64,000 bases of DNA from the NCBI GenBank assembly GCA_016291135.1, contig JAEFAE010000003.1, positions 84,516 to 148,515 on the forward strand, in the 5' to 3' direction. Positions 20,019-41,340 of the stretch are shown in pieces (position 1 is the stretch's first letter; every line of letters begins with the position of its first letter). The stretch comes from Bacteroidales bacterium. Lineage in GTDB: Bacteria > Bacteroidota > Bacteroidia > Bacteroidales > F082. A program made the position numbers and the translations under genes. A model generated the notes under the pieces. It did not search any database, was not told the origin of the DNA, and saw only the letters and a program-made list of their open reading frames with translations.

Positions 20019-20027
20019 TTGTTTGAT

Positions 20028-25691: not shown

Positions 25692-25715
25692 TTCTTTTAG
25701 ACAAAAAACCATACA

Positions 25716-26603: not shown

Positions 26604-26622
26604 CCTACTAACGCTTCTTGTT

Positions 26623-27102
26623 ATGTTCATCAGAAACCCTTTGCAACTGCGTTATCCCATTGTGGATCTAGACGGTAGCCAACTGAAAGGCTCTATCGAC
26701 GCCTTCTTGCGCCTGCTGATCGCCTCCAACAAGTACGACAGCATCGCCGATCAGGAGTTCGGATTCTGTCTGGAGGACTTCCGTTTCGAAGGCTTCAGTT
26801 CGGAACGGGCTGAGTTTTTGGAGCGGAAGACCGTGCCGCGAGACCGGTCGGAGAATACCGAATTGGCTGAGATCCGCAGTCCGTTGTATTCCAAAAGACT
26901 CGTCGGAAACAGCAAAAACGCCGACACGTTTGCCCGTGAATTGAAAAAGAGCATCGAGCGTTATGAACGAAGGCTCCGCGAGGTACAGGTGAACACGGAC
27001 TTCCAGAAAAACGGCCGGATCCTCCACATCATCGTGACCGGGAAGATCAACAATGCCGCCAATACCCTTTATTTTAACGAGTTTAATGTTGATGTTTGGT
27101 AA
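26623..27102 (+). CDS. tssE: Baseplate wedge protein TssE (gp25-like), copy 1
   Basis: 159-aa ORF directly upstream of tssF. It has a gp25/GPW-like start (LKGSIDAFLRLLIASNKYDSIADQEFGFCLEDFRFE). Paralog at 39230-39691. Confidence 0.6.
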   Translation: MFIRNPLQLRYPIVDLDGSQLKGSIDAFLRLLIASNKYDSIADQEFGFCLEDFRFEGFSSERAEFLERKTVPRDRSENTELAEIRSPLYSKRLVGNSKNADTFARELKKSIERYERRLREVQVNTDFQKNGRILHIIVTGKINNAANTLYFNEFNVDVW

Positions 27103-27117
27103 CAACACTTTAAGATT

Positions 27118-28872
27118 ATGACACAAGAAGATTACGATATTCAGGTACAGGTGGACAGCCTGATGCAGAAAGTCCTGGAGACCTGGAAACGCGAAGGGAA
27201 ATGGGACGGCAGCAACCCCAATTCGCCCTTTTACGGTTTCGAGAAAGACCCCTTGCTCCGTATCCTGATCACCGCCTTCGTATATCAGACCAATGGCCTG
27301 AAGGCCGATATCCAGAACTTGGAACGGGACGTGGTGAGCGATTTCCAAAACAGTATTCTGCCGTACCAGATCACCCAGGCCATTCCGGCCATGACCTTGA
27401 TCCAGACGGCCAAGAGCCCCGATGAGCCCGGCGACGTGTATTGCGACGAAACGACCGCCTTCCTGGTAAAGAAAGAATCGCTCCGCGTCAAGGAAGTGTT
27501 TCCTTTCCATCCGCTCTTTAAAGCCAAGATCATCGGGATGACCGTGAATGGTGTCACCAAGATTGCCAGCGACAAATGGAACGTCAACATCGACGTCGCC
27601 GACCAAAGCGCCGACCTCTCGAATTTCGGTTTCCTGATTACCGGCCTGCGCTACAGCAACGTGAATGTTTATTGGAACAACGAGAAGCTGCCCCTGATCC
27701 AACCCTGGGAGTTCGACCGCTTCCCCAAGATGGCCTGGTTCAACGACGCCAACATCGTCTTCAACAAGTCGATGCTCTTTGGCGGTGAAAGCAAATGGTA
27801 TGACCTCTGGGCCCAGATGAATGTGAACTACTACATGGTGGCTCCGACCTTCCGTCGTCCGATCGACTCCGATATGATCAATTTCGTGTTCGAGTTCTCG
27901 GGGATGTCGAAACCCTTCAATTTCGAAGCGGAAAACCTGGCCTTCAACTGCTTCCCGGCCGTCAACGTGCTGAAAAAAGACTTCCAGCTCTCCGGAGCGG
28001 AACCCATCGTCAAACTGACCAATGAAACGGATTACACCGATGAGGATGCCGAGCCGGTCAAAGGGGTCCGTTCTTCCGTGGATGAGAACAACCACGAAGA
28101 CTTCTTTATGAACCTGGTCATGAATCCGAATTCCTCGATCGACGACCTGGATCGCTTTAGCATCCGTCATTTCGGCTGCGAGCGGTTCAATCTGAATGCC
28201 TTGGTACGTCTGGCCAACGATCTCAGCTTGCGCTACGAGTCGGATTTCTACGCCTTCCAGAAGGTGCACAAGATGCAGAACACCGACAAGATCCGTCGTC
28301 TCAACATCGTACTGAAGGATGTGTTGGGGGTGATCCTGAACAACAAGGAGCCGCGTTCCGGCGTATATGCCATCCTGAAACATGGCAAGGGGGAGGGTAA
28401 TCCTGCGCCGATCCATCTCTCCGGTCTGTTCACCGACGGTGCCTACGCCAACGACATCGATGTGTTCAGCGACGTTTCGGGACCCAAGTGCTTCGACAAG
28501 AAGGAAACCAAGATGCTGTACAAGACCTTTGGCGGACGCGATGAGGTGGTCGATCGGGAGGAGAAGGCCATGTTGGCCAAGTACTATGCCCGTACCAACG
28601 ACCGTATCGTGACACGTGCCGACCTAAAGGCCTTCTGCAACCGTTATTTTGTCCAAATCGGTTATGCGGACGCCTTGCTCGACGTGAACAGTGTCATCGA
28701 ACGCCAAGAGGACGGCTTGTCCCGTCAGCACATCACCGTCCAGCTGAAAAACGAATTCGTGCGTGACCGCGAAGACGTGCCCATGATTGTCGACCGCTTG
28801 CGCAAACTGGTCGAGGTGCATAGCATGACCCACCTGCCGATCGTGGTGGATTACCTGGCGGTTGTGAGTTAA
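27118..28872 (+). CDS. tssF: Baseplate protein TssF, copy 1
   Basis: 584-aa ORF. The N-terminal KDPLLRILITAFVYQTNGLKADIQNLERDVVSDFQNSILPYQITQAIPAMTLIQ follows the TssF pattern (dP.v..LlE.fAyL...l...ld...p.....ll..l.P.yl.P.PS). Its size and its position after tssE also fit. Confidence 0.7.
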   Translation: MTQEDYDIQVQVDSLMQKVLETWKREGKWDGSNPNSPFYGFEKDPLLRILITAFVYQTNGLKADIQNLERDVVSDFQNSILPYQITQAIPAMTLIQTAKSPDEPGDVYCDETTAFLVKKESLRVKEVFPFHPLFKAKIIGMTVNGVTKIASDKWNVNIDVADQSADLSNFGFLITGLRYSNVNVYWNNEKLPLIQPWEFDRFPKMAWFNDANIVFNKSMLFGGESKWYDLWAQMNVNYYMVAPTFRRPIDSDMINFVFEFSGMSKPFNFEAENLAFNCFPAVNVLKKDFQLSGAEPIVKLTNETDYTDEDAEPVKGVRSSVDENNHEDFFMNLVMNPNSSIDDLDRFSIRHFGCERFNLNALVRLANDLSLRYESDFYAFQKVHKMQNTDKIRRLNIVLKDVLGVILNNKEPRSGVYAILKHGKGEGNPAPIHLSGLFTDGAYANDIDVFSDVSGPKCFDKKETKMLYKTFGGRDEVVDREEKAMLAKYYARTNDRIVTRADLKAFCNRYFVQIGYADALLDVNSVIERQEDGLSRQHITVQLKNEFVRDREDVPMIVDRLRKLVEVHSMTHLPIVVDYLAVVS

Positions 28873-28930: not shown

Positions 28931-30082
28931 ATGAAAAGAGTTGTTGTTTTGTTATTGGCAATGCTTCCTGTGTGGGCTTGGGCTCAAAAGGAATTGGTCA
29001 TCGAGGGGCCGAACGACAAAGTGGCGCCTGTGACGTTCCAGGTGACCTCGGATTTCGATCAGGAGAATGGGACGCTACGACTGACGCTCACCGGAGATGA
29101 CACGGCGGAGGCCAATGCGCTGTGGCTCCTCCAAGAAGCTACCGGCTATGATGTGCTGGACAAGTATTTCAAAAAGAACGAAGGGAAGCTCTCGCTATCG
29201 TCCTTTGCCAAGGAACAGATGAGTTTCATGAACCTTTGGGAGAAAACCGCTGATCCGGTCATCCAGGTTACAGGTGCTCAGTTGAGCGACAAGACGGCCA
29301 TCCAAACCAAGGAAGGGATGAAAGCCAAAATCCAGAAGCAGATCCTTCCCCTGGACACACGTTCCGCCCTCGTGCTTAACCTTCAAGTGACGCCAGGAAT
29401 CGAAACGGTCACCCTCACTTTGAACAATCCACTGCTTCTTTTCAACAACTCCGGGCGGTATGAACTGGCATTTATCGGCCAGCCTGTCAGCATGGACTTC
29501 GACGTCAAGATCGACTATTGTGGCGCTCATGCGGAAATGCTTGCCCAGCTTGAAGAATACATCCGTATCTTCGGCAAGGGGGAGGAGACCCTACAGCAAG
29601 CTCAGAGTACTTGTGTTGACAAGCTTAAAGCACTGTTAATCATAGAATATACACAGATTGATTTCAAGCGTTTTGAGAACACAAAGTGTCAGGAAATCGA
29701 CGATGCATTGGCGGCTTTGAAAGCCTTGACGGAACGCATTGCAAAGTTTGAGCTTCCCAAAGACAATGGAGGTGGTGGTGCCGGTAGCGCCAGTGGTGCC
29801 AGTGGTGCCAGTGGTTCTTCTGCATCCACCGCTGTCGACGATTGCAATACCAAGAAGGTGAACGATGACCTGAAGGCCGCTGTGGTTAAGATGAACACAT
29901 ACGCCAACGACTGGATCTCATCCAACGATCCCACCGTTAAACAGGCCAAGAAACTGGCCTTTGACGGTGTGGTGAAGGAGACGGACGCCAAAATTAATGC
30001 CCTTGCGCCCGCTTGCCGTAAGAAACTCGACAGCGGCTCGCTGAAGAACTACGAGATGGCGAAGAAACTAATCAAGAATTAA
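28931..30082 (+). CDS. Periplasmic or secreted protein, paralog of 16471-17649 (start of module 2)
   Basis: 383-aa ORF with a signal peptide (MKRVVVLLLAMLPVWAWAQ). It has a Gly/Ala/Ser linker and the same conserved Lys-rich C-terminal domain ending ...LKNYEMAKKLIKN. Confidence 0.6.
   Translation: MKRVVVLLLAMLPVWAWAQKELVIEGPNDKVAPVTFQVTSDFDQENGTLRLTLTGDDTAEANALWLLQEATGYDVLDKYFKKNEGKLSLSSFAKEQMSFMNLWEKTADPVIQVTGAQLSDKTAIQTKEGMKAKIQKQILPLDTRSALVLNLQVTPGIETVTLTLNNPLLLFNNSGRYELAFIGQPVSMDFDVKIDYCGAHAEMLAQLEEYIRIFGKGEETLQQAQSTCVDKLKALLIIEYTQIDFKRFENTKCQEIDDALAALKALTERIAKFELPKDNGGGGAGSASGASGASGSSASTAVDDCNTKKVNDDLKAAVVKMNTYANDWISSNDPTVKQAKKLAFDGVVKETDAKINALAPACRKKLDSGSLKNYEMAKKLIKN
29789..29815 (+). 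repeat. In-frame 9-nt tandem repeat (GCCAGTGGT x3) encoding (ASG)3
   Basis: Three perfect 9-nt units inside the linker GGGGAGSASGASGASGSSAS of the 383-aa protein. The position is equivalent to the GNS repeat of its paralog. Confidence 0.85.
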
Positions 30083-30141
30083 GAAGACAGAAATCAGGAG
30101 ACCGCATACAGAATACAAAAACAATATAAGGAGATATTACT

Positions 30142-31302
30142 ATGTCAGTTTCGGCAACCTTGCAGTTTGCAGAGTCAGGCGGAGGAATAACCGCTTTTCT
30201 TGCAAAGAACTTGAAAGACATCTATACGGTACTCGACCTTGACTATACGGTCGAAAAGCCTTTTGATAAGACAGGACATCCCTCGGGTGGTGCATACATT
30301 TCATTCATTAAGGTGACTGTTCGGGCTGCCAAGCAAATGGGGGCGCCTTTCCATGATTGGATCAACAAGCCTGACCAACAGATGGATGGCGTGATTAAGA
30401 TCTACGACTCAACCGGTATCATTTCTTCTACCATGCAGGATGTCACCGGTGCCGATCCTCTTGTGGACGTGGGCAATACGATGTTTGGTCTCCCAGAAGA
30501 TATGATGGAGGGGGCGATGAACCAGGCTATGGATCAAGCCTCGAATTACGACACCCGTGAACATGACCTGTACGACGAGCTTGAACATAAGGATTTGTTG
30601 GAGCAAGCTGATGACTATAAAATCAAGGTTATGGCGAATGACAGCGATGATGTGATCAAAGACAAACTACGTAAGACAAAAAAGGAGCTTGATACGCTTG
30701 ATACAAACGATGACGCATTGAGAGCGTTCATAAAGGAACACCCGGAAGTGGGATGGCCGAACAAAGAAAAGGAGACCGCGGAAATGGACCTTGAAGCCTT
30801 GAAACAGTATGCTGCAGATAACAAATTGAATGATGCGCCCCAAAAAAAGGACAATGAAACGGATGAAGAATATCTGAAGCGTTATCGGGCTTATGTGAAA
30901 GATGATATGGAATTCAAGGCGGCGAAACAAATGGTGAAGGATCGGCCAGATAAAGTTAAGAAGGCTGTTGGGGACGATGTGGAGCAACAAATCAAAAATG
31001 AAGAGGTGCTTGCTCCTGCATACCAAACCGCCGACAAACTGAAAAAACAAACGGCATCCACTGCAAAGGGTATTGCTAAGGAATTCGTCAAAAGAACCAT
31101 GGAATGCGCTCGCAGTATTACTTTCGAGAATGCCTATTGCGTCAGTTTAAAAGAGCATTTTACCAACAGACCTGATTCCCAAGGAAAACTCGACGCTTCC
31201 TATCCATGGATCCTCGAAATCGGTATCAAACCGACAACCGTGAAGGTTACGGGTGAGCAGCTTGGGCCAAAGGCCATTGGTGGCGAAATTGAGTTTAAGT
31301 AG
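30142..31302 (+). CDS. Hcp-family protein with a ~230-aa charged insertion inside the fold
   Basis: 386-aa ORF. Residues ~25-95 (VLDLDYTVEKPFDKTGHPSGGAYISFIKVTVRA...FHDWINKPDQQMDGVIKIYDS) and ~330-386 (ITFENAYCVSLKEHF...YPWILEIGIKPTTVKV) align to the two halves of Hcp1. A Lys/Asp/Glu-rich segment sits between them, where Hcp1 has only a short loop. Confidence 0.6.
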   Translation: MSVSATLQFAESGGGITAFLAKNLKDIYTVLDLDYTVEKPFDKTGHPSGGAYISFIKVTVRAAKQMGAPFHDWINKPDQQMDGVIKIYDSTGIISSTMQDVTGADPLVDVGNTMFGLPEDMMEGAMNQAMDQASNYDTREHDLYDELEHKDLLEQADDYKIKVMANDSDDVIKDKLRKTKKELDTLDTNDDALRAFIKEHPEVGWPNKEKETAEMDLEALKQYAADNKLNDAPQKKDNETDEEYLKRYRAYVKDDMEFKAAKQMVKDRPDKVKKAVGDDVEQQIKNEEVLAPAYQTADKLKKQTASTAKGIAKEFVKRTMECARSITFENAYCVSLKEHFTNRPDSQGKLDASYPWILEIGIKPTTVKVTGEQLGPKAIGGEIEFK

Positions 31303-31326
31303 GGGAAACGATAGGAGACCTTTGCC

Positions 31327-33627
31327 ATGACAATGTGTTTGATAAACAAGTTTGAAATCAATGGCGTGCGCATTGATGATAGTTTCAAGAAAAGACCTGA
31401 ATGGGTTCCGGTTAACGACCAGAATGACCCTCAATACCTTGAAGGCTACTCGGTAATGGACTGCTCCTTGACTAAAGAGTTGCTGAAACCCAACGTGTTC
31501 TCGTTTACGATGCGGCATCAAAAAGCCCAGGGGAAAAGCTTTGCTATTATAGACAATCTCATGGGCAAATCAGTAACATGTCAAGTGTATACGTTGTTTG
31601 AGGGGAATTCGAACTCATCAGTCGTTTTTTCCGGTACCATTGCTAAGGTCGGGGTGAAAGGTGCTGTTGTATCCTGCATCGCCTATAGTGAAGACGCCAA
31701 GTTGCAGGGTTCTCCCAAGTGTCGGTGTTTTTGCGGAAAGAAGCTATCGGAAATTGTCGATGCCGTTGTGAAAGATGATGTTTATCATATTAAAAAGACA
31801 ATTAGTATTCATTCCTCCTTCGATACGCTAACCCTGCCCTATATCGTCCAATACAATGAAAGCGATTACGATTTCCTTGTAAGGTTGGCAAAGCGCTTCG
31901 GGGCTTTTTTCTATTACGATCAGGATGGAGTTATAAAAAGGCTCTATTTCGGTATAATCCCTGGCTCCAATCAAGTGGATTTTGACTTGAGCGGCACGCC
32001 AAATGCAAAAAGTGTCAGCTATGAGCTCATGGCGGTAAACCCTAATTTCAGGTATATGTCGTATTTTGATGAAAAAGACAAATACCTGCAAACTGCTGTT
32101 CCCGATTTGGGTGGACTTGGTTCCACAGGCCTTATGGGTAAGGCAGTAGCTGGTTCCCGTCCACTTGTTGCTAACTATGCCCATTTTGTGGACGAACCCA
32201 ACAGACTGCCTAAGACGCCCAACAATGATATGTTAAAACTATTCAGTGAAGCAGCTTTGCGCAGTATGTCTGACAGTATGGTAACCTGTACCTTCATTAG
32301 CTATCGTTTTGATATTCATGTTGGATCTGTGGTGAAGATCGATAGCAATGATCCGATGCTGGTGACTGCAGTCCATCTCACCTGGGATTGCAATGGATCG
32401 CCTCAAAATGAGGTCACGGCTGTTGTTCTTCCCAAAACCGACTTTGTAAAAGACAAGCTATTTGCTCCTTATATGGACCCTTACGCCTATCCCAAGTCAA
32501 GCGCCTTACGCGCTGTGGTGGTCAACAACATCGATGAGAAGAAAATGGGGCGGGTACAAGTGCGCTTTGCTTGGCAACCAGCTGACATGGCTAACGATGA
32601 AAAGCAGTTGTTGCCTTGGATCCGCATTGCTCAACCCTACGGGGGTGGCAAAAAAGACAAAGAACAAGGTTGTTACATTCTGCCGGAAATTGGAGAGGAG
32701 GTCATGGTTGGATTCGAACACGACAACCTGGAAAAGCCCTATGTGATAGGTGCATTGTATCATGACTCGGATACGGCCGACAACGTTCAAATGCCGGATC
32801 CTGCATGGGTGGAAACCGACCAAGCCAACAAGAACAACGAGGTGAAAGCCTTCCGTACCAAGAAAGGCCATACCATTGAGTTCCACGACGTGGATGGCAA
32901 TGACAACTACGGTTTCATCCGCATCTATGGCAAAAACCAGTCGGAAAAGAACTATGACATCTACCTTTCCTCCAACCCAGTCAAAAACGGAGATGCTTTT
33001 TACAAAGTGAATGGTCCCAAGGAAGATGCGGAGGCAAAAAAGGAGATCGGATTGCAAGAGTATGAGGCGAAAGAGCTTCGTATCCTGGTGAGGAGCAATG
33101 GCGGAGATATTGTATTGGATGCCGGTGATGGGGATATCATCATGAATGCCAAGAACATTCGCGTCAATGTCGCCGGCAATCGTACCACAGCGATACAAGA
33201 CGACGACATCGTTAGTATCGGGGGAAACCGGTTGGTAGACGCGGGTAACGATTCCTTGATGCTACGTGGAAAACAAACCGTTATGGTACATGGAGAATTG
33301 GATGCGGAGTACAAAGCCGCGGTCAATTTGGTCGCTGACCGGGATCTTAAGGCCGACGTCAAACGAACAATGAAACTCATGGCATCGGATCTTGAGGCTG
33401 AAGCCAGCCAGACGGCAAAGGTGAAAACCAACTCCGGCATTGAACTGAATGGGGGTATGAAGGTCGATATACAGGCTACCAACTTCAAAGCCGAAGGGCG
33501 GGCCGATGCTACTTTGAAAGGCACCGATATTACCGTTGATGCCCTCGTGGCTGCTACGATAAAGGCAACCGATATCACGCTCGATTCCGAAGCGGGCACC
33601 CGAAAAGGATTGTGGACAGACATGTAA
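31327..33627 (+). CDS. tssI: T6SS spike protein VgrG (TssI), copy 2
   Basis: 766-aa ORF with YIVQYNESDYDFLVRLAKRFGAFFYYDQDG, AVVVNNIDEKKMGRVQVRFAWQ, WIRIAQPYGGG and PEIGEEVMVGFEHDNLEKPYVIG motifs. It also has C-terminal beta-helix-like repeats. Confidence 0.85.
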   Translation: MTMCLINKFEINGVRIDDSFKKRPEWVPVNDQNDPQYLEGYSVMDCSLTKELLKPNVFSFTMRHQKAQGKSFAIIDNLMGKSVTCQVYTLFEGNSNSSVVFSGTIAKVGVKGAVVSCIAYSEDAKLQGSPKCRCFCGKKLSEIVDAVVKDDVYHIKKTISIHSSFDTLTLPYIVQYNESDYDFLVRLAKRFGAFFYYDQDGVIKRLYFGIIPGSNQVDFDLSGTPNAKSVSYELMAVNPNFRYMSYFDEKDKYLQTAVPDLGGLGSTGLMGKAVAGSRPLVANYAHFVDEPNRLPKTPNNDMLKLFSEAALRSMSDSMVTCTFISYRFDIHVGSVVKIDSNDPMLVTAVHLTWDCNGSPQNEVTAVVLPKTDFVKDKLFAPYMDPYAYPKSSALRAVVVNNIDEKKMGRVQVRFAWQPADMANDEKQLLPWIRIAQPYGGGKKDKEQGCYILPEIGEEVMVGFEHDNLEKPYVIGALYHDSDTADNVQMPDPAWVETDQANKNNEVKAFRTKKGHTIEFHDVDGNDNYGFIRIYGKNQSEKNYDIYLSSNPVKNGDAFYKVNGPKEDAEAKKEIGLQEYEAKELRILVRSNGGDIVLDAGDGDIIMNAKNIRVNVAGNRTTAIQDDDIVSIGGNRLVDAGNDSLMLRGKQTVMVHGELDAEYKAAVNLVADRDLKADVKRTMKLMASDLEAEASQTAKVKTNSGIELNGGMKVDIQATNFKAEGRADATLKGTDITVDALVAATIKATDITLDSEAGTRKGLWTDM

Positions 33628-33653
33628 ACCATTCACTTATAACTCTTGATTAA

Positions 33654-34034
33654 ATGGCAGGCGACGCAACAACCGTATGTATGGGCGCGACAATGAAATG
33701 CAGCATGGGGATGACTCCGGCGCCTCTCGTGGTGATTCCACCTCGGAACTCGATGATTCAGGGTAGGTTTGTGGCCAATATCATGGATAACAAACCAATG
33801 GTCAACATCCCCACTTTCGGGATGTGCCGTTCCCTGGCCAACCCCAGCGTGGCTTCAGCCACCTCGGCCGCTTGCGGTGTCCTGACGCCCATGCCCTGCA
33901 TCCCCAGCACCGTGGCACCTTGGGCACCAGGCAACACACAGGTGCTTACGCAAGGCGCCCCTACACTGACCGTGACCAGCAAACTCGTATGCATGTGGGG
34001 TGGGGTGATTGATTTTGTTAACTCGGGGCATTGA
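33654..34034 (+). CDS. Stand-alone DUF4280 (PAAR-like) spike-tip protein
   Basis: 126-aa ORF immediately after vgrG2: VCMGATMKCSMG...NIPTFGMCRS...PCIPSTVAPWAPG...KLVCMWGGVIDF. It matches the DUF4280 Cys/Gly/Pro pattern as I remember it. Confidence 0.75.
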   Translation: MAGDATTVCMGATMKCSMGMTPAPLVVIPPRNSMIQGRFVANIMDNKPMVNIPTFGMCRSLANPSVASATSAACGVLTPMPCIPSTVAPWAPGNTQVLTQGAPTLTVTSKLVCMWGGVIDFVNSGH

Positions 34035-34049
34035 TAATCCAAATTTTTT

Positions 34050-34057
34050 TATATTTG
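34050..34057 (+). promoter_or_regulatory. Candidate internal -7 box (TATATTTG) upstream of Ubl copy 2
   Basis: Exact TAnnTTTG, 40 nt upstream of the ATG at 34097. A TTG lies at 34031-34033 (about 16-nt spacing), in a 62-nt AT-rich gap. Confidence 0.4.
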
Positions 34058-34096
34058 TGGTGTGTAATGGAATGAACTAATACAATACCACAAGCC

Positions 34097-34411
34097 ATGG
34101 AAGACTTCTACGTTCACATCCGGTATCGGAACAAATCCATCCGGTTCAAGATCTCCGATCCCAACTATGAGATGGAGCAACTCATGAACAGCTTGAAGAA
34201 CGCCTCTGACAAAGAGGGGAAGCGCTTTTTCAACCTACCGGAGATGATTGACTTCACGCCCACGGATTATTATTTTGGGAAGATGGATGAAACCACCGGC
34301 CAATGCATCATCCTTCAACCGCGTGTTGGGAAAACCCACATGAAGATGTCGGACTATAACATCCAGAACGGGGACACCCTGGAGGTCGTTCCCGATCCCA
34401 TTGCCGGTTAA
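34097..34411 (+). CDS. Ubiquitin-like (beta-grasp) protein ending in Gly-stop, copy 2
   Basis: 104-aa ORF ending ...GDTLEVVPDPIAG followed by TAA. It has the same length and the same C-terminal DPIAG as copy 1. Confidence 0.7.
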   Translation: MEDFYVHIRYRNKSIRFKISDPNYEMEQLMNSLKNASDKEGKRFFNLPEMIDFTPTDYYFGKMDETTGQCIILQPRVGKTHMKMSDYNIQNGDTLEVVPDPIAG

Positions 34412-34430
34412 TCCTTAACTCGATACAGCC

Positions 34431-35189
34431 ATGAAGCGCTTCATCCCATTGCTGTTCATGTTGCTTTTGTGGGCGGTGCCTTTTCAGGCATGGCCACAAG
34501 AGGAGGAAGAAGACAACCCTTTGGAAGCCAACCTCACCGCCCTTCATAACGACTTGAACGGTCTTAGCAACAACCTGCAGACGTACGACGATATCGCATT
34601 GTACGACTATGAGTTTCAGGAAGCCGGCAACCGATTGAAGTCGTTTGCCGCCCTCGTTGCCAAAGACAGTCCGCTCTACGATGCCTACGACCTCTGCAAC
34701 CATACCTACTATATGCTTCAGAAACGCATCGAAGGGCTCCGCGAGGATCACGAACGCCAACAAGACTACGACCGGCTGATGGATCGTTTCCAGCAGACCA
34801 TCGTCGATCTCGGTTCCTTGAAAGAACAAGGCGAGCATCTGGTGGATAACAACGAGCCGGATTCCCTTGCCGCCGTGAAGAAAAAAGCCACGAGGCTTTA
34901 TTTGAAGGCTTCTGCGGACAATGAGACCCAAAAAGCCTTGGTGGAGTCGGATCCTACCATGCAACAGTTGTGGGATACCATTGAGTCGTATAATGAAGCC
35001 ATCGAAGCGCTGGAATGCCGCTCCAGGGCGCACCTGTACGAGACACTGTTTCGCATTGCCATGGTAGCCATGGCGCTGATCCTGGTGTTGAACATGATGC
35101 GCTCCAAACTGAAAGCAAAAAAGATGTCGAAAGAGGCACGACAACAAATGAGTAAACTCATGGGGAACGACGACACCCCGGTTTTATAA
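34431..35189 (+). CDS. Bitopic coiled-coil protein, paralog of 17656-18432
   Basis: 252-aa ORF with signal MKRFIPLLFMLLLWAVPFQAWPQ. It has a charged coiled-coil body, the C-terminal TM LFRIAMVAMALILVLNMM and a basic tail. Confidence 0.6.
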   Translation: MKRFIPLLFMLLLWAVPFQAWPQEEEEDNPLEANLTALHNDLNGLSNNLQTYDDIALYDYEFQEAGNRLKSFAALVAKDSPLYDAYDLCNHTYYMLQKRIEGLREDHERQQDYDRLMDRFQQTIVDLGSLKEQGEHLVDNNEPDSLAAVKKKATRLYLKASADNETQKALVESDPTMQQLWDTIESYNEAIEALECRSRAHLYETLFRIAMVAMALILVLNMMRSKLKAKKMSKEARQQMSKLMGNDDTPVL

Positions 35190-35204
35190 AAGAAAGGATT
35201 GCGC

Positions 35205-37547
35205 ATGAAACGAATCATCCTCTTAGGAATGTTGCTGTTAATGGTCATGCCGATGATGCTGGCCCAGGAGTTGGTGCTGGATTATCCCAAGTTCCAGCCA
35301 AGTCTGGATACGGTTTTTGTGGATTTCAAGGTCGTTGATGACGGAACGAAACTGAACCTCGGTTCCATCGACAAGGGAGCCCTCTCCATCTCGGAAACCG
35401 GCTACAACGGCCTTGACGATGGCACCACTTTGGTGGACGTCTTGGACATCCGTAACTATGATCCCGATTATGAAGCAGGTAACTATTCCATGATCGTTTT
35501 GGCCGATCGTGCCGCCACCAGCGCGCAGATGGAGGAGCAACGACAGGCCATCACGGAACTATACAAGGGACTCCCCAAAGCGCATTTTTACCTGTCTGCC
35601 ATGGACGAAGTGCGCACCCCCACAACGGAGATCAAGGATTTTTACCAGCTGACGCAGTGGTTTGACAGTTGTTTCAACATGCCGTCTGCCAAGGAAAAGT
35701 TCATCTATAAGGCACTGGCTTCCGTGTTGGAAGAGATCTCGAAAACGGATACCCATGACTTTTATCCTGAACTGGAATACAATCCCAATCTGAAAAACGA
35801 TACCAAAAAGGTGGTTGTAATGCTGACCAACGGCGTTTACAAGAAAGCGGATGGCAGCTATATCGGAGGGGAGGATTTCTTCCGGATCAAGATGACGCTG
35901 ATCTCTGAGCAGGACCTGAGAGAAAACACACAAGTGAGCTATGTGTTTTTGGGTGACCGCTTTATCGAAGAGGACTTCCACCATGAGATCCAATATGTTT
36001 TCAAGGAAGGTGACCGTTATGACTCGGACTTTGACTTCCAAACCCTTAAGGAGGCACTGGTCATGCACCCCGACCCGAAAGCCATGGATTACCGCATGGT
36101 CATCACCAACCTTGCGGAGAAGTTATACGACGGTCAGAAGATTACCTTGTATGCCTACCTGCATCAGGGTGATGTGGATGCCATGGGTTCCCGATCCTTT
36201 ACCAAAGGATGCCTGATCGACCCCATGCCCGTACATGACAGCCTCTCGTTACGTCTTACCCGTATCGCCCAATGCCTGATCTTGGCCCTGATCGTCATCG
36301 GATTGCTGTGGCTGTTCTTCCGACTTCTGTATCCAAGATGGAGACATGCTCTTTTCAAAAGGAAATACGTTAAGGAGTTCGACAAGGCCAATGTGTTGCC
36401 TACCCGCGCCAGCGACTATGTGGGACAGAAGTGCTACTATTGCAAGGATGCCTTCCAGCCGGGCGATGAAATAGTGACCCGCTGTGAGCACACCATGCAC
36501 TACGACTGCTGGAAGGAGAATGGTTATCAGTGTCCCGAGTTCGGCAAGGAATGTGATAACGGCGATTATTTCTATAACGAGGATCATCGTTGGGATCGCC
36601 GGAATGCGCCTTATTTCCTGAAATGGTTGGTTGCCGGTTGTTTGGCAGGGTTGGTCAGCTGGCTGGTGTTCCGCCTGGCAGTGCATAACAATCTCTTCCA
36701 TGGCCTCATCAGCGATATGGTGATGCTCTTTCAAAAAGTCGGTTTGGATGCTTCAGGACAAGCCTTTGCCGATAAGATCCACGACATGCTCTTCTTCGGG
36801 GTCATTGTTGGTGGAATTGTTACCCTGGTGGCTTCCTGTCTGTTAGAACGTCGGAAGAAAACCGCCCAAAGGGTGGGGGTCATCATCGGACGTGTCTTAT
36901 GCGGGATGCTGGTCGGCTTTGCTGCTTTCCTTGTTGGCAGTTGGGTTGCCTTGGCTACGGGAAAGGACTACAACAGCTTTCTTGTCGATCTTATTCCTTG
37001 GCTCCTGATGGGGGCTGGATTGGGTCTGGTGATCGCCTACCGCACCGAGGTGCCCCTCAAACGTGCCGTTTTGTGTGGCTTCCTCTTTGCCATGCTCGGC
37101 TTCGGTGTTCTTTACATGTTCAGCTTTGAAAACAGCAACTTCGAGTTCCATTTCCTCGGTTTGTTGACCAGCATGCTGTGTCTGATTGGATTGATGGTCT
37201 TTGCGGGAGGCTTGTATGCCTGCATAGCGCAGCGGGAACAGGTCTCAAAACGGTATTTCCTCCATATCGACGGCAACCTCAAGAGCCGAGATGTGGCGAT
37301 TTACAAATGGATGAACCGTGTTGGCGGCTACCGTGTAGTGACCATCGGCAGGTCGGACCGCTGTTACATCGACATGGATTGGGACAACACGGAAGGACTT
37401 GAAGGCGTTCAAGCCGAGGTCTATATTGAGAATGACGTGCCGTATCTCAAGAACATGAGAACCAATGAAGCCACCAGGCTCTACCATGGCAGTTCGTTTA
37501 GGGTTGGAAAGACTGTGTTCACTTATCTTGAAAAAGACCGGATCTGA
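35205..37547 (+). CDS. Polytopic membrane protein with RING-H2-like finger and C-terminal FHA-like domain, copy 2
   Basis: 780 aa from the ATG at 35205; the track ORF starts at an upstream TTG. It has the same architecture as 20028-22379. All eight candidate metal ligands are conserved (CYYCKDAFQPGDEIVTRCEHTMHYDCWKENGYQCPEFGKEC, 36432-36554). The C-terminus is VTIGRSDRCYIDM...FRVGKTVFTY. Confidence 0.65.
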   Translation: MKRIILLGMLLLMVMPMMLAQELVLDYPKFQPSLDTVFVDFKVVDDGTKLNLGSIDKGALSISETGYNGLDDGTTLVDVLDIRNYDPDYEAGNYSMIVLADRAATSAQMEEQRQAITELYKGLPKAHFYLSAMDEVRTPTTEIKDFYQLTQWFDSCFNMPSAKEKFIYKALASVLEEISKTDTHDFYPELEYNPNLKNDTKKVVVMLTNGVYKKADGSYIGGEDFFRIKMTLISEQDLRENTQVSYVFLGDRFIEEDFHHEIQYVFKEGDRYDSDFDFQTLKEALVMHPDPKAMDYRMVITNLAEKLYDGQKITLYAYLHQGDVDAMGSRSFTKGCLIDPMPVHDSLSLRLTRIAQCLILALIVIGLLWLFFRLLYPRWRHALFKRKYVKEFDKANVLPTRASDYVGQKCYYCKDAFQPGDEIVTRCEHTMHYDCWKENGYQCPEFGKECDNGDYFYNEDHRWDRRNAPYFLKWLVAGCLAGLVSWLVFRLAVHNNLFHGLISDMVMLFQKVGLDASGQAFADKIHDMLFFGVIVGGIVTLVASCLLERRKKTAQRVGVIIGRVLCGMLVGFAAFLVGSWVALATGKDYNSFLVDLIPWLLMGAGLGLVIAYRTEVPLKRAVLCGFLFAMLGFGVLYMFSFENSNFEFHFLGLLTSMLCLIGLMVFAGGLYACIAQREQVSKRYFLHIDGNLKSRDVAIYKWMNRVGGYRVVTIGRSDRCYIDMDWDNTEGLEGVQAEVYIENDVPYLKNMRTNEATRLYHGSSFRVGKTVFTYLEKDRI

Positions 37548-38329
37548 TGGAACCACATGATATCAAAGCGGAAACCTGGGTAGCGGCGCATTATCCTTTT
37601 CAAAGGGAATGGATTGCGCACCATAAAGGCATTTTTACCAGGAATTATGCGGATGATATGCGTTCCTGCGATCCGCAAACGACTGTAGTGGAATTGTCTC
37701 GTGACGGCCTTTATGAGATCCTTCCCAATAAGTTGTTTTTCAATGGCAGTGAGTTGCAGGGCATCAATCAGAGTGATTTTGAGTGGACGCATCGGGTGCT
37801 GAAACAGCGTGTGGAACGCATCAAGACGGTGTTTCTGCCGTTCGACACCTCATTTTTCAACCATTCTTTGGCCTTGGAACAGGAACTGAATGCCCACTTG
37901 GCCGATAAAACCAACGTTCTCCTGAAGGCTTTTATAGGGGAGGACTACTCCAACGACCGGAATGCTTACATTCGCAGGATGGCTCCCATGGTGCTACAGG
38001 CCGCCCACCTTCGTGGGAAATATGCTGTGCTGTGCAAAATCATCACCTGTGTTTTGGGATCTTCGACCCATTACATCAAGAAAGGGAATAGGATCCGGTT
38101 TGTGGTGAACCGTCCCAACTTGGAACGAAAGGCGTTCTTGAACTATCTTGAGGAACTGAAACCCTTTTTCCAATGGGTGGAGGAGTGGTTCATCCCTTTC
38201 GACTTCCAATGTGAGTTCAAAGTGAGGGACTATGGACGCGACGACCGTTTTACGGGTCCAAACAAACTGTTACTCGACTACAACGCCACCCTTGGCAACC
38301 AACCTCATAAAGCATCAACCAAACCATGA
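37547..38329 (+). CDS. Conserved T6SS-module protein, positional TssG candidate, copy 2
   Basis: 260-aa ORF whose start overlaps the upstream stop by 1 nt. Paralog of 24918-25691. Confidence 0.35.
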   Translation: MEPHDIKAETWVAAHYPFQREWIAHHKGIFTRNYADDMRSCDPQTTVVELSRDGLYEILPNKLFFNGSELQGINQSDFEWTHRVLKQRVERIKTVFLPFDTSFFNHSLALEQELNAHLADKTNVLLKAFIGEDYSNDRNAYIRRMAPMVLQAAHLRGKYAVLCKIITCVLGSSTHYIKKGNRIRFVVNRPNLERKAFLNYLEELKPFFQWVEEWFIPFDFQCEFKVRDYGRDDRFTGPNKLLLDYNATLGNQPHKASTKP

Positions 38330-39219
38330 ACAAGGATATTAGAATCAACTGGAATGTCGGGATGGAACTCCTTCCAGAGACTTTCATCCATTTAGAGAAT
38401 CAATTGGCCGAATACCGTCAACTGTTGCGTAAAGTTCAGGCTTCCAAACAGTTCGGGCTGATCCCGGGATCGGCTTTCAAGACGATGGTGTCGGTTGAGG
38501 GTGACGCAGTTTCCGTGGGAGAGGTAGACTGCCAAGCGCTCTTGGAAGACGGCGGCATGGTGGATTACCATCGCGACGCCCGTTGGCAACTGACGATTCC
38601 AGGATCATCGGGTAGTTATTATCTCGCGCTTGCTCCGTCGGAGAAGACACGAGAATATGAATTAGACGAGGTTCCATTCGTCGAGAATGAATATGAATTC
38701 ACGCTCCGTACCTTGGAACAGCTCCCTGGCCACATGCCCATTGCCAAGGTAATCCATGAGAACGGTGCATGGGAATTGCAGGAGGACTACATCCTCCCGG
38801 TCATCGCTATGCAAGACGCCCCCTTGTTGATGGAGATGGAGAAAGCCATTCTACAGTTGGTCCGACAGGTTCTCAACCACGAGAAATTCACATACCTCCG
38901 AAACCACGACGTGATGCGGATGTTTGCAGAAGAGATGGAGTGTCTTGGGATGAACCAAAGTCCCCGAGACTTCGTGACGTTGTGCCGCCGTTTCGTTCGC
39001 TTGCTTTCCTATGTTATTCAGGATGCACCGGTACAGCTTCCGGAATACAATCCTTACGACCTCCAACTGTTTCTCACCGCGGTTTGTGGATTCCTTATCC
39101 AAGCCATCGAGCGCCTTCCTATGGTGGAGGTGGTGGAATACCAGCCGGTGCCAAAACAAGAATCCAAGCCGGAATCCGAGTCAGAACCCGAACCCGAAGA
39201 CGATTGTCCCATCCTTTAA
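38326..39219 (+). CDS. tssK: Short TssK-like baseplate protein with an acidic tail, copy 2
   Basis: 297-aa ORF with an ATGA overlap to the upstream gene. The N-terminus is IRINWNVGMELLPETFIHLENQLAEYRQLLRKV. The C-terminus is QPVPKQESKPESESEPEPEDDCPIL. Confidence 0.5.
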   Translation: MNKDIRINWNVGMELLPETFIHLENQLAEYRQLLRKVQASKQFGLIPGSAFKTMVSVEGDAVSVGEVDCQALLEDGGMVDYHRDARWQLTIPGSSGSYYLALAPSEKTREYELDEVPFVENEYEFTLRTLEQLPGHMPIAKVIHENGAWELQEDYILPVIAMQDAPLLMEMEKAILQLVRQVLNHEKFTYLRNHDVMRMFAEEMECLGMNQSPRDFVTLCRRFVRLLSYVIQDAPVQLPEYNPYDLQLFLTAVCGFLIQAIERLPMVEVVEYQPVPKQESKPESESEPEPEDDCPIL

Positions 39220-39229
39220 TTGAAAAGCC

Positions 39230-39691
39230 ATGTACGTCAAGCGACCGATCATCATGAAATATCCTACCGTGGCCAAGGATGCGTTGAAAAAGTCCATTGA
39301 CGCTTTCCTTGACCTGCTAATCACCTCGGGAAAAGACAGTTTCAAGGCAGATGCGGATTTCGGCTTCGCCTTGGAGGATTTCCGTTTTGAGATCTACAGT
39401 CCTGAGACCGGTATGTTCCATGGGGATGTCCGAAAACAGAAGAAAGATATCATAGGGACCATCGAAGATCCCATGCAAAAATACAGGATCAAGGGTTCCA
39501 GTGTCAATACCGAAACTTTTGCGGGACATCTTAAGAATTCCATCGAGCAGTATGAGCATCGGTTGAAAAATGTAGAAGTGGCCATGGATTTCCTGGCACG
39601 AGGCACGGTGTTGTTGGTTTCGGTAAACGGCATCATGGACGATGGGTACGACTCGCCCTACACTTACTATAACAAAATCCAAATCTGGTAA
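39230..39691 (+). CDS. tssE: Baseplate wedge protein TssE (gp25-like), copy 2
   Basis: 153-aa ORF. LKKSIDAFLDLLITSGKDSFKADADFGFALEDFRFE is paralogous to copy 1. Confidence 0.6.
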   Translation: MYVKRPIIMKYPTVAKDALKKSIDAFLDLLITSGKDSFKADADFGFALEDFRFEIYSPETGMFHGDVRKQKKDIIGTIEDPMQKYRIKGSSVNTETFAGHLKNSIEQYEHRLKNVEVAMDFLARGTVLLVSVNGIMDDGYDSPYTYYNKIQIW

Positions 39692-39696
39692 ACAGC

Positions 39697-41340
39697 ATGA
39701 AGAACGACGATATCAAAAACCGGGTGGTGGAGCTGAGAAACAAGGTGTTCTCACTCTGGGCAAGTGAAGGAAAATGGGAAAGCGACAATCCCAATACGCC
39801 TTTATACGGAATGGATAAAGACCCGCTGGTGTCGATGATGATTACAGCCCTGGCCTATCAAGAGGATCAGATCGAACAGGACCTGGCACGGTTCCGTTCC
39901 GGCATGGTGGGCGAGTTGGAAGAGGCCATGCTGCCTTACCATCTGCTTAAAGCCAATCCGTCCGTGGCCATGATGGCCACCGCCAAAGCGCCAGGCAATC
40001 CCGCTCGCTGCCTGGTGGGAAGCGACACGGTGTTCGCCGTGCTGAAAGAGACCTTTCAAGGGCGCGACAAAATCAACTACTGCCCCTTGTTTGAGTCGAA
40101 CATCATTGGTGCCAAGGTAGTGTCTGTCAAGCCCCTGCTTCAAGGGCAATGGAAACTGACACTGGAAGTGGAGGATGAGAAGACGGTACTCGGCGGCGTG
40201 GGGCTCTTCTTTAAAGACCTGGCGTTCGACGAGGTGACCATGCAGCTCGGAGACAAAGAGGTTCCGTTGATCAACCCGTGGGAATACGACCGTTTCCCGA
40301 TGAATCCTGATTTCTCGTTTTGGAACCTGATCTACAACCGTTCATTGACCTTCGGGACCAATGAGCAATGGTTCGATCTTTGGGCGGAGATGGATGTTCC
40401 GTACTACATGGTGGATCCTTATACGCCCATCGTGCTTGAACGCGGCATCGTGGAACTCACGCTTGATTTCGCGGGGTTGAAAGAGGATATGCTCAATGTC
40501 AATAATGTGGTGATCAACGCGTTCCCGGTAGTCAATGTCAACAAGAAACACTTTGCGTTAACACCTTCCGAACCCATTGTGAAGATTGCGGACGATAACG
40601 ATTTCTTCATGAATTTGGTTGGGGAATACGACACCATGGATGAAGCCGACAAGTTCATCCTTCGCCGTTTTGGTTGCGAACGTTTCGGGTTCAACGAGTT
40701 GCTTCGGCTGGCCGACGAGCTGCAACGTAGAAATAGCACCGACTTCTATGCGTATCAGACGATCCCTGCGTTACAAGATAGCGACCGGATCCGTAAGTTG
40801 CGGATTTTGCTGAAAGATATCATTGCCATCGTGAAGAAAGATGGAAACCCGAAAACGGGGGTTTATGCCCTGTTAAAGGAAGACGCCAAGGTGGAGGTCT
40901 CCATCCCGCTGACCGCCCTCTACACCGATGGCGCCAAGGGCAATGGCGTCGAAGCTGGTGCTTCGGTGGTGAACGTGCCGAGCGATTTCGATGCCGGCCA
41001 GACCCGCTTGTTGACGCGAACCACCGGTGGACGCGACGAGGTGGTGGACGAGGAAGAAAGGAAGATGCTCTCGCATTATTATGCCCTAACCAACGACCGG
41101 GTGGTGACTCGAGCCGACCTGAAGTCGTTTTGTATCAAGGAATTGTACAACTACGACATCGGCAACGTCAACCGCGTTGAAATCGCTAGCGACGAAGAAG
41201 GTACGCGTACGGTGGTTGTCTTTGTCTCGAACGTAAATCCAGATTTGAACCTGACCAACATCCAACAGCGAATTGAAAGGATGATCGAAGTGCACGGCGC
41301 CGGCCAAATGCAGGTCAAAGTGATGATTGTCAAACAATAG
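39697..41340 (+). CDS. tssF: Baseplate protein TssF, copy 2
   Basis: 547-aa ORF. KDPLVSMMITALAYQEDQIEQDLARFRSGMVGELEEAMLPYHLLKANPSVAMM follows the TssF N-terminal pattern. It is collinear with copy 1. Confidence 0.7.
   Translation: MKNDDIKNRVVELRNKVFSLWASEGKWESDNPNTPLYGMDKDPLVSMMITALAYQEDQIEQDLARFRSGMVGELEEAMLPYHLLKANPSVAMMATAKAPGNPARCLVGSDTVFAVLKETFQGRDKINYCPLFESNIIGAKVVSVKPLLQGQWKLTLEVEDEKTVLGGVGLFFKDLAFDEVTMQLGDKEVPLINPWEYDRFPMNPDFSFWNLIYNRSLTFGTNEQWFDLWAEMDVPYYMVDPYTPIVLERGIVELTLDFAGLKEDMLNVNNVVINAFPVVNVNKKHFALTPSEPIVKIADDNDFFMNLVGEYDTMDEADKFILRRFGCERFGFNELLRLADELQRRNSTDFYAYQTIPALQDSDRIRKLRILLKDIIAIVKKDGNPKTGVYALLKEDAKVEVSIPLTALYTDGAKGNGVEAGASVVNVPSDFDAGQTRLLTRTTGGRDEVVDEEERKMLSHYYALTNDRVVTRADLKSFCIKELYNYDIGNVNRVEIASDEEGTRTVVVFVSNVNPDLNLTNIQQRIERMIEVHGAGQMQVKVMIVKQ

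Follow-up and report, generated by a model that had tools for sequence, protein, structure and literature searches.

The 64,000 nucleotides of DNA considered here (the window) come from a Bacteroidales bacterium (GenBank assembly GCA_016291135.1, contig JAEFAE010000003.1, positions 84,516 to 148,515 of the forward strand) and carry a type VI secretion system (T6SS) cluster whose structural genes are interspersed with those of a predicted ubiquitin-like (Ubl) conjugation pathway. Directly downstream of this main cluster, at 28931-41340, a second group of eleven genes, module 2, repeats its spike, baseplate and inner-membrane genes in diverged form. With a probability of about 0.55, module 2 is a functional accessory, an anciently diverged copy of these parts that depends in trans on the main cluster and builds alternative firing complexes. 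Module 2 has either lost or never had the generic parts of the machine and would therefore have to draw on the main cluster for them. Copy numbers and absences given below refer to the window, i.e. to 64 kb of the genome, and gene identities rest on Pfam and NCBIfam scans together with direct reading of the sequence.

The gene content of module 2 is that given in a preliminary description of the region: eleven plus-strand genes encode a periplasmic protein (Peri2), an Hcp-fold protein (Hcp3), VgrG2, a PAAR-like tip protein, a ubiquitin-like protein (Ubl2), a coiled-coil membrane protein (CC2), a RING-type membrane protein (RING2), a TssG candidate (TssG2), TssK2, TssE2 and TssF2 (Table 1). The interval runs exactly from the start codon of Peri2 to the stop codon of TssF2 with gaps of no more than 62 bp, and since the genes tile it, there is no room for a further one. 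Module 2 had been said to lack tssB, tssC, clpV, E1 (ThiF), E2, JAB/JAMM and outer-membrane (OM) barrel genes, and BLASTP and profile scans found none of these in 28931-41340; the sole sheath and ClpV copies of the window lie at 296-4797. Private to module 2 are thus the Hcp-like adaptor, VgrG, PAAR, Peri, Ubl, CC, RING/FHA and TssG/K/E/F proteins, all of which contact the spike, baseplate or inner membrane, while the generic components TssB/C, Hcp1, ClpV, E1, E2, JAMM and the OM protein are present in single copy. The earlier proposal that one sheath, ClpV, E1, E2, JAB and OM barrel would serve both modules agrees with these copy numbers. It needs correction in that the JAMM (JAB) and OM-barrel proteins are not universal parts of the system, because their genes are missing from the clusters of L016 and L008, two divergent loci of horse and human gut that have a single module and the order Peri-CC-RING-E1.

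All-versus-all BLASTP of the window proteins links ten of the eleven module-2 genes to an upstream paralogue at 25-59% identity, with E-values of 3e-19 to 6e-135 that are far beyond chance; only Hcp3 had no paralogue match at E <= 0.01. For the Ubl pair, the 61 identities in 104 residues previously counted by hand were reproduced exactly, and the TssE pair is indeed the more diverged of the two. Conservation is uneven along the RING proteins, falling from 59% in the RING core and 51% in the FHA-like region to 34% in the transmembrane (TM) region and 24% in the periplasmic domain. Among the Ubls, 40 positions, tail included, are invariant in both clades, and 21 are fixed differently in each. 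The best-conserved parts of the paralogues (Ubl 59%, RING core 59%) would be those expected to touch shared enzymes.

The shared genes are also collinear. The first cluster had been described as a module 1 spanning 15512-28872, whose order module 2 keeps from the Ubl onward. These limits run from the start of Ubl1 to the stop of TssF1 and cover no more than the rear half of a cluster whose full extent begins at clpV (296). Cluster 1 likewise has Hcp, VgrG and PAAR genes ahead of Ubl1 (4857-9406), so that module 2 is collinear with all of cluster 1 from its second Hcp, and Peri alone is displaced. The divergent single-module cluster L016 has a compact, ancestral-looking arrangement, ClpV-TssB-TssC-Hcp-Hcp(insertion type)-VgrG-PAAR-Ubl-E2-Peri-CC-RING-E1-TssGKEF, and module 2 corresponds to this type of order minus the generic genes.

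The paralogues are old, as had been surmised. In unrooted neighbour-joining distance trees of eight protein families (RING, TssF, TssK, TssE, TssG, Ubl, CC and Peri), the module-2 proteins form a clade with 100/100 bootstrap support outside every module-1 orthologue, including those of single-module genomes; a recent tandem duplication in situ can be rejected on these grounds. In a RING tree of 176 sequences, module 2 has a long branch (0.48) that leaves a deep, unresolved node, and RING representatives share at least 53% identity within the module-2 clade and at most about 36% outside it, with nothing in between. A donor lineage for horizontal acquisition was sought among 1.84 billion representative proteins and none was found. 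The split of module 2 would have been either ancient or fast; with unresolved deep nodes and a long module-2 branch, ancient duplication and xenology are not separable. In genomes that carry both modules the two have diverged to a similar degree, which is consistent with co-inheritance.

Module 2 is not pseudogenised. All eleven open reading frames (ORFs) are intact, and the ratio of non-synonymous to synonymous change (pN/pS) of its genes is 0.06-0.43, with saturated synonymous divergence (dS), similar to module 1 and indicative of purifying selection; the values are 0.06-0.10 for Ubl2 and 0.25-0.28 for Peri2, whose orthologues in L001, L002, L003, L020 and L023 are 45-70% identical. A status as pseudogene or remnant is rejected on the strength of the intact ORFs and this selection. 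The GC content at third codon positions (GC3) is 0.61 in module 2 (28931-41340), 0.76 in the module-1 core (15512-28872) and 0.82 in the housekeeping genes at 42268-50035; the spike genes of both sets have the lowest values (0.40-0.52).

Whether other genomes carry one or both modules was checked as the preliminary description had suggested, and either situation occurs. A genome scan with a profile of both RING paralogues found 19 loci on 17 contigs, all from uncultured Bacteroidales of rumen or gut (Ca. Limimorpha, RUG/RGIG metagenome-assembled genomes (MAGs), horse and human gut), with no more than two RING loci per contig and, where there are two, one of each type. The module-1 order Ubl-E2-Peri-CC-JAB-RING-OMP-E1-TssGKEF is kept in about 12-14 of these. 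Two contigs have both modules in tandem (JAILBC01 and JAEEON01), and one carries a module 2 whose upstream side is truncated. The RING/FHA family itself is much wider than the loci examined, as an hmmsearch of the 1.84 billion representative proteins with the RING profile returned 184 representatives at E<=1e-30; where these carry a name, it is 'hypothetical' or 'FHA domain-containing' protein, from MAGs of Bacteroidaceae or Prevotellaceae.

Beyond the window, module 2 is intact and keeps its gene order in over 12 contigs of uncultured Bacteroidales, in lineages only 52-98% identical. It directly follows tssF1 in eight contexts besides the window (L001/L017, L002/L019, L020, L023/L024, L025, L026, L032 and L033), with the exceptions that two genes intervene in L020 and that a kinase-like gene lies between the modules of JAEEON01. 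The two L020 genes (582-3909, between tssF1 and Peri2) encode a 528-aa protein and a 569-aa protein, the latter with apolipoprotein-like helical repeats; they occur in a single dual-module contig and may be cargo. The kinase-like gene is of the BadF/NagK type and follows tssF2 in the window (41327-42202) and tssF1 in single-module genomes (also seen at L002 2975 and L006 18871); from its varying position it follows that the insertion point of module 2 differs among genomes or that the region was rearranged. In the closest module-1 relatives, L006 and L007 (TssF1 88% and 85% identical), the kinase-like gene comes directly after tssF1 and there is no module 2, which is therefore accessory, and either mobile or repeatedly lost.

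A core of seven genes, Ubl2-CC2-RING2-TssG2-K2-E2-F2, also stands alone, in L027 (GCA_018396375.1, 5919-13206) and L028 (3450-10791). Its proteins are 46-86% identical to those of the window, its flanks are rplM-rpsI-rpsB-tsf and ROK/GH92/mutS2, and no spike genes, module 1 or main cluster were found within 6-10 kb; in a third genome, rnf/nqr genes follow module 2. The stand-alone core shows that inheritance couples the Ubl and RING to the baseplate and anchor rather than to the spike. A sheath, ClpV, E1, E2, JAMM or OM-barrel gene in cis with module 2 was found in none of the contexts examined.

The conjugation components are recognised with differing ease. The AlphaFold2 (AF2) model of Ubl2, with a mean predicted local distance difference test score (pLDDT) of 74.6, has the ββ-α-ββ-β topology of a beta-grasp fold, and Foldseek matches it to SUMO, ubiquitin, the bacterial Bil Ubl (8tyx/8tyz) and the EccD Ubl domain at target-normalised TM-scores (TMt) of about 0.7. 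A DP[IV]AG tail with an exposed C-terminal Gly is invariant in 19 Ubl sequences, comprising both Ubls and all orthologues. In the E2-like protein, HPWHPNIR...GRVCL (HPN and catalytic Cys) is invariant in seven orthologues; the UQ_con match remains below the cut-off (0.0034, 17.4 bits versus 27), and no PDB sequence was matched, either with the single sequence or with a profile. The JAMM protein has a signal peptide and a TM helix at residues 127-145; among PDB sequences it best matches the Caldiarchaeum Rpn11-like protein 6fjv (5.8e-5), followed by Rpn11 and CSN5.

The RING proteins contain eight invariant Cys/His in the pattern C-x2-C-x13-C-x-H-x2-H-x2-C-x7-C-x6-C, a RING-H2-like spacing, within a family that has 30 orthologous clusters for RING2. 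Matches of RING1 and RING2 to Prok-RING_1 and zf-RING_2 are sub-threshold, and the RING profile matched no PDB sequence. Hydropathy and motifs suggest a signal peptide, a periplasmic vWA-like domain (DxSxS/TDG), a TM helix, a cytoplasmic RING finger, about 5-6 further TM helices and a cytoplasmic FHA-like C-terminus. The FHA domain has a weak, sub-threshold match in RING1 only; NCBI gives the name 'FHA domain-containing protein' to P0100, a distant member of the family.

CC2 and RING2 are joined in frame as proteins of about 1020-1028 aa in L001 (9224-12286), L023 (10001-13087) and L026 (6939-10001). In this fusion, equivalent to 34431-37547 of the window, the RING2 signal peptide turns into a second TM helix. 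Such 'Rosetta stone' fusions in several lineages make it very likely that CC and RING belong to one complex. The CC tails (CC1 18358-18432, CC2 35115-35189) are Lys-rich and end in a motif characteristic of each clade, EEDIPSI in module 1, DDTPVL in module 2 and KDIPTI in L016; this cytoplasmic tail may serve as an acceptor of the Ubl or as a peptide ligand.

A mechanism can be proposed in which each set would assemble its own baseplate on its own membrane anchor. A common E1 and E2 would charge both Ubls, which have kept the features that face E1 and E2, the DPIAG tail among them. Through E2, the cognate membrane RING would then direct its own Ubl onto a lysine close to the membrane, for which the CC tail and the RING protein itself are candidates. 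The conjugated Ubl might act as a removable docking or licensing tag between the anchor and the cognate baseplate, in parallel to the interaction of the TssN Ubl domain with TssK in T6SS-iii, and the JAMM peptidase would strip the tag and reset the site. Two alternative firing complexes would result, which differ in spike and envelope anchor and use one sheath, tube, ClpV and enzyme pool. A more far-reaching idea, put forward tentatively, is that of an undescribed T6SS subtype where a eukaryote-like Ubl/E1/E2/RING/JAMM cascade would replace the fixed TssN Ubl domain and reversibly 'glue' baseplates to the anchor; two orthogonal Ubl/RING/baseplate/anchor sets would compete for one pool of E1/E2/deubiquitinase (DUB) and sheath/ClpV, and conjugation would select which of two differently armed machines assembles.

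Several points weigh against the accessory reading. The window offers 64 kb of the genome, and a second tssBC/clpV/E1/E2 set may lie elsewhere. The E2, RING, FHA, TssE2, TssF and TssG assignments are sub-threshold or motif-based, and the trees are simple neighbour-joining trees without an outgroup that have module 2 on a long branch. Ubls are highly conserved in general, with Ubl1 orthologues 85-96% identical, and for this reason the identity of Ubl1 and Ubl2 alone is no proof of shared enzymes. The lower GC3 of module 2 could reflect low expression or foreign origin. Finally, heteromeric (mixed) baseplates or anchors are possible. In this last case, module-2 and module-1 proteins would co-assemble in one machine with a heteromeric wedge ring and anchor, and the duplication would have diversified a single apparatus. 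We judge this improbable, if worth serious attention. The modules are adjacent and co-oriented, 58 bp apart in most genomes with no terminator-like site in the gap, an arrangement that makes their co-expression likely; the JAB and OM proteins are single-copy though apparently parts of the envelope complex, and the stand-alone cores of L027 and L028 lack a VgrG and PAAR of their own. Module 2, however, encodes what appears to be a complete wedge (TssE, F, G and K) and mostly its own hub (VgrG, PAAR), so that a module-1 baseplate protein is formally unneeded. Close relatives carry, and are taken to function with, module 1 alone, and at 25-40% identity the interfaces have probably diverged.

A second complete T6SS, with a sheath, ClpV, E1 and E2 elsewhere in the genome and nothing shared, is harder still to reconcile with the data and seems distinctly unlikely. 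Eleven contexts, with flanks of up to 10 kb, showed no extra tssBC, clpV or ThiF gene beside module 2, a contig has at most two RING loci, one of each type, and the Ubl tail and RING core are strongly conserved between the paralogues; the view limited to 64 kb, the differing chromosomal sites of module 2 (split systems are possible) and its position as a deep, distinct clade speak for such a system. Known bacterial Ubl operons (Bil and CBASS Cap2/3) are defensive (PMC10557695), and the E1 generically resembles PADLOC E1-E2 models. The Ubl/E1/E2/RING/JAB genes might accordingly be a Bil-like anti-phage defence lodged in a T6SS locus, with the second Ubl and RING as a defence-specificity variant, but this has very little in its favour otherwise: PADLOC models are unmatched by the Ubl, E2, JAB and RING proteins, the genes are interleaved with T6SS structural genes in fixed order in 17 of 17 contigs, Ubl and RING travel with TssGKEF as one unit in L027 and L028, and the E3 and DUB are predicted to be envelope-anchored like membrane-complex parts. 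Hardest to credit is that module 2 is what remains, decaying and functionless, of a T6SS cluster once duplicated or acquired horizontally. Missing essential genes, a GC3 below that of module 1 and the chromosome, and a patchy distribution would fit decay; a full set of 11 unbroken ORFs, both in the window and in over 12 further contigs from lineages 52-98% identical, pN/pS of 0.06-0.43 with saturated dS, and a conserved gene order would not, and the CC-RING fusion points to innovation, not decay. The accessory reading, in which module 2 supplies one of two alternative baseplate and anchor sets, is thus the one we favour. The preliminary description had proposed two such sets, and the age and intactness of the paralogues, the occurrence of one or both modules per genome, the lack of generic genes in cis, the close conservation of Ubl and RING core between the paralogues and the stand-alone core are in its favour; its limits of module 1 and the universality it gave to JAB and the OM barrel had to be revised.

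Table 1. Features of the main cluster and of module 2. Coordinates are those of the window; the last column gives the paralogue in the main cluster with BLASTP identity and E-value.
Feature	Coordinates	Strand	Evidence and remarks	Paralogue
ClpV-type AAA+ ATPase	296..2791	+	AAA_2, AAA_lid_9 and ClpB_D2-small matches; single copy, presumed shared	
Presumed TssB (sheath)	2900-3361	+	position only, no family match; adjoins TssC also in L016	
TssC (sheath)	3427-4797	+	PF17541 3.2e-102; single copy	
Hcp1, canonical 130-aa tube protein	4857..5249	+	PF17642 2.9e-27; 75% identity to first Hcp of L016; single copy	
PAAR1 (387 aa, C-terminal DUF4280)	8243-9406	+	C-terminus is paralogue of module-2 PAAR-like protein	
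PKD-domain protein with type IX secretion system (T9SS) C-terminal sorting domain	14119-15468		directly upstream of Ubl1 in most module-1 loci	
Ubl1	15512..15826	+	paralogue of Ubl2	
E2-like protein	15861..16463	+	invariant HPWHPNIR-x8-GRVCL motif; single copy	
Peri1	16471-17649	+	paralogue of Peri2	
Membrane-anchored JAMM/JAB peptidase	18438..20018	+	HSHPGLGLFLSNQD fits HxHx7Sx2D; single copy	
RING1	20019..22379	+	paralogue of RING2	
Coiled-coil and OM beta-barrel-like protein	22397..23692	+	weak OMP_b-brl matches; single copy	
E1 (ThiF/MoeB-type adenylating enzyme)	23701..24909	+	PF00899 3.2e-53, 180.8 bits; single copy	
TssG1 candidate, TssK1, TssE1, TssF1 (module-1 baseplate)	24918..28872	+	TssG1 candidate at 24918-25691	
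Peri2, secreted/periplasmic	28931..30082	+	N-terminal signal-like segment, Gly/Ser linker, helical C-terminus	Peri1, 28%, 5e-40
Hcp3, Hcp-fold protein	30142..31302	+	PF17642 TssD 5.8e-14 in two stretches, 52.5 bits versus cut-off 25.8	
VgrG2 spike	31327..33627	+	PF04717 2.6e-18, PF05954 2.6e-12, both above cut-off	VgrG1, 29%, 2e-52
PAAR-like tip protein (DUF4280), PAAR2	33654..34034	+	PF14107 2.9e-33, 115 bits versus cut-off 26.3	PAAR1 C-terminus, 37%, 3e-19
Ubl2, 104-aa ubiquitin-like beta-grasp protein	34097..34411	+	ends ...DPIAG; AF2 and Foldseek	Ubl1, 58.7% over 104 aa, 9e-49
CC2	34431..35189	+	signal peptide and periplasmic coiled coil before a single C-terminal TM helix; Lys-rich cytoplasmic tail with DDTPVL at its end (TM scan)	CC1, 25%, 5e-25
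RING2, polytopic inner-membrane protein	35199..37547	+	Prok-RING_1 8e-5, zf-RING_2 5e-4, invariant Cys/His pattern	RING1, 33%, 7e-132
TssG2 candidate (baseplate wedge)	37547..38329	+	position before tssK and weak fold evidence	TssG1 candidate, 33%, 6e-55
TssK2, short TssK, N-terminal shoulder/neck region only	38326..39219	+	TIGR03353 5.8e-11; PF05936 1e-4	TssK1, 32%, 2e-47
TssE2 (gp25-like sheath initiator)	39230..39691	+	weak gp25 and TIGR03357 matches	TssE1, 40%, 9e-35
TssF2 (baseplate wedge)	39697..41340	+	similarity to TssF1	TssF1, 37%, 6e-135

The baseplate proteins are assigned at different levels of support. TssK2 aligns over residues 6-255 with positions 2-259 of the 429 of TIGR03353, about the N-terminal 60%, and scores 42 bits against a cut-off of 100. 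The gp25 match of TssE2 is sub-threshold (17.7 bits), and TssE1 passes PF04965 (28.9 versus 27.2 bits). Weak matches to PF05947 (T6SS_TssF) are seen in four of ten TssF family members, the best at 7.5e-4, with none for TssF2 itself, and neither the TssF nor the TssG family profile matched a PDB sequence. The TssG2 candidate has no Pfam or PDB sequence match; its AF2 model (pLDDT 72) is placed by Foldseek closest to the diffocin baseplate triplex 8v3w_4 (E 5e-3), the phiCD508 baseplate and a Myoviridae 'tail protein' (2.4e-4), at low TM-scores of 0.26-0.41. PHROGs gave no match for the baseplate proteins, Hcp3 and Peri2, NCBIfam none for most module-2 proteins, and an Rfam scan of the whole window none at all. 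The module-2 PAAR-like protein has a sub-threshold NCBIfam match to IglG PAAR-like proteins (8.7e-13).

Hcp3 is not orthologous to the tube protein Hcp1, and module 2 is without a canonical Hcp1 orthologue. In an alignment that includes Hcp1, Hcp2 and the second L016 Hcp, its N- and C-terminal Hcp parts are separated by a charged insert of about 250 aa, and since this insertion interrupts the fold, a role of Hcp3 as bulk tube protein is doubtful. Hcp folds with a charged insertion of 150-250 aa form a type of their own, to which the second Hcp of the compact L016 cluster (2679-3491) also belongs; proteins of this type may be spike-proximal adaptors rather than tube subunits.

On the plus strand, 36 genes are densely packed between 296 and 42202, with intergenic gaps that never exceed about 110 bp. 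ClpV, the presumed TssB, TssC, Hcp1, Hcp2, VgrG1 and PAAR1 come first, followed by four ORFs (399, 831, 166 and 174 aa) and the PKD protein with its T9SS sorting tail, then by Ubl1, the E2-like protein, Peri1, CC1, the membrane JAMM, RING1, the coiled-coil/OM-barrel-like protein, E1, the TssG1 candidate, TssK1, TssE1 and TssF1. The 11 module-2 genes and the BadF/NagK-like kinase gene end the series, before the housekeeping genes miaA, cca, clpB (minus strand) and gyrA (plus strand); the housekeeping ClpB (44630-47212, minus strand) is a gene separate from ClpV. The gap of 58 bp between tssF1 and Peri2 has no terminator-like site; such sites occur at chance level in the window, and a sigma-70 promoter scan is uninformative for Bacteroidota promoters.

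The longest E1 ORF opens at a TTG at 23482 and overlaps the OM-barrel gene by 211 bp; with orthologues of 402-405 aa, the true start is probably the ATG at 23701 (MEEIEIKEW...). PAAR1 has an N-terminal extension of 280 aa, and with the four ORFs that follow it spans 8243-14054. The four ORFs probably encode effector, adaptor or immunity cargo of module 1, because they differ among related loci and their GC3 is lower. The T9SS sorting tail of the PKD protein marks the host as a member of the Bacteroidota and suggests a T9SS-exported surface component tied to this T6SS, comparable to the PKD domains of TssP. In the main cluster (296-28872) and in loci L004-L019, the Ubl/E1/E2/RING/JAMM set is interleaved with envelope proteins in an order kept in about 14 uncultured Bacteroidales genomes. 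By its genes, the main cluster looks like an undescribed T6SS variant that combines Bacteroidota-type sheath and tube genes with a lack of detectable TssN-R.

If the proposed mechanism is true, this would be the first case found of ubiquitin-like conjugation in the assembly of a secretion nanomachine rather than in phage defence or sulfur transfer. The idea of the 'auxiliary module' would widen from spikes and effectors to whole baseplate and anchor sets, with a bearing on how sheath, baseplate and membrane complex recognise each other. The locus is a natural experiment, with two co-resident Ubl/E3 pairs (59% and 33% identical, with 21 clade-fixed Ubl positions) beside one E1, E2 and DUB. It makes testable how Ubl paralogues are discriminated past shared enzymes, what the substrate of a prokaryotic membrane RING E3 is and whether baseplate docking is licensed. 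The hosts are abundant uncultured Bacteroidales of rumen and gut, where the system may shape competition.

Among known systems, the closest counterpart is T6SS-iii, which consists of TssB, C, D, E, F, G, K, VgrG and ClpV with a TssNQOPR membrane complex, and in which the cytoplasmic Ubl domain of TssN binds TssK and thereby docks the baseplate (Bongiovanni et al. 2024, PMC10781749). The present locus shares with it a PF17541 TssC, PF17642 TssD proteins (Hcp1, Hcp2 and Hcp3), a DUF4280 tip, ClpV, a putative TssEFGK baseplate and a Bacteroidales host. Both would have a ubiquitin-fold element at the interface of membrane and baseplate, the TssN Ubl domain there and, as proposed from the genes alone, the Ubl here, and both have vWA and PKD domains in envelope parts (TssR and TssP there, the vWA-like N-terminus of RING and the PKD/T9SS protein at 14119-15468 here). 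No match by the name of TssN, O, P, Q or R was obtained with Pfam and NCBIfam for the 36 plus-strand proteins of 296-42202, though divergent homologues may escape hidden Markov models. Unlike in T6SS-iii, a polytopic RING/FHA protein makes up the anchor together with the CC and Peri proteins, the membrane JAMM and the OM protein. The Ubl occurs as a free protein of 104 aa that has a Gly terminus and is accompanied by E1 and E2, and the system is partly duplicated.

The conjugation set itself resembles those of Bil, Bub, CBASS Cap2/Cap3 and the Caldiarchaeum E1/E2/RING/Rpn11 system in its Gly-ended beta-grasp Ubl, ThiF-type E1, putative E2 with an HPN...Cys motif, putative RING-type finger (weak Prok-RING_1 match) and Rpn11-like JAMM. 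It differs from them in lying within a secretion-machine locus, in having membrane proteins as E3 and DUB, and in having two Ubl/E3 pairs per E1/E2/DUB. The Bil and CBASS Cap2/3 operons act in defence (PMC10557695), and the papers on Bil and Bub go no further than a mention of 'rare RING-type E3s' in bacterial operons that are uncharacterised. PADLOC had no match for Ubl1, Ubl2, E2, JAB, RING1 and RING2, and only generic adenylation-domain matches (E1-E2 models) for E1. A literature search found no paper linking T6SS to a Ubl/E1/E2/RING cascade; the paper on the Prok-RING families, which were reportedly defined by Burroughs, Iyer and Aravind in 2011, was outside its coverage. In eukaryotes, SUMO1 and SUMO2/3 use one E1 and one E2 and are discriminated at the level of E3 or reader; the arrangement proposed here, of several Ubls, one cascade and downstream specificity, would be analogous, with no homology implied beyond the fold. 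The H1-T6SS of P. aeruginosa is activated in an FHA-dependent fashion through Fha1/TagH with PpkA/PppA. An FHA-like domain on the membrane side of the apparatus (its match is sub-threshold) likewise suggests post-translational control of assembly here, but it is fused to the RING membrane protein, and no gene of the locus was recognised as a Ser/Thr kinase or phosphatase.

Auxiliary or orphan T6SS modules are islands of vgrG, hcp and paar-effector genes, such as the Aux clusters of V. cholerae and the vgrG islands of P. aeruginosa, and to our knowledge they contain only spike, adaptor, effector and immunity genes and no baseplate or anchor genes. They diversify the payload by using, in trans, the sheath, ClpV and membrane complex of a main cluster. 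Like them, module 2 is an extra spike set apart from or beside a main cluster on which it would depend in trans. Unlike them, it also duplicates the whole predicted wedge (TssE, F, G and K) and an inner-membrane anchor with its Ubl. Module 2 looks like an auxiliary T6SS module widened to take in baseplate, anchor and Ubl, within an apparently undescribed, Ubl-linked T6SS subtype.

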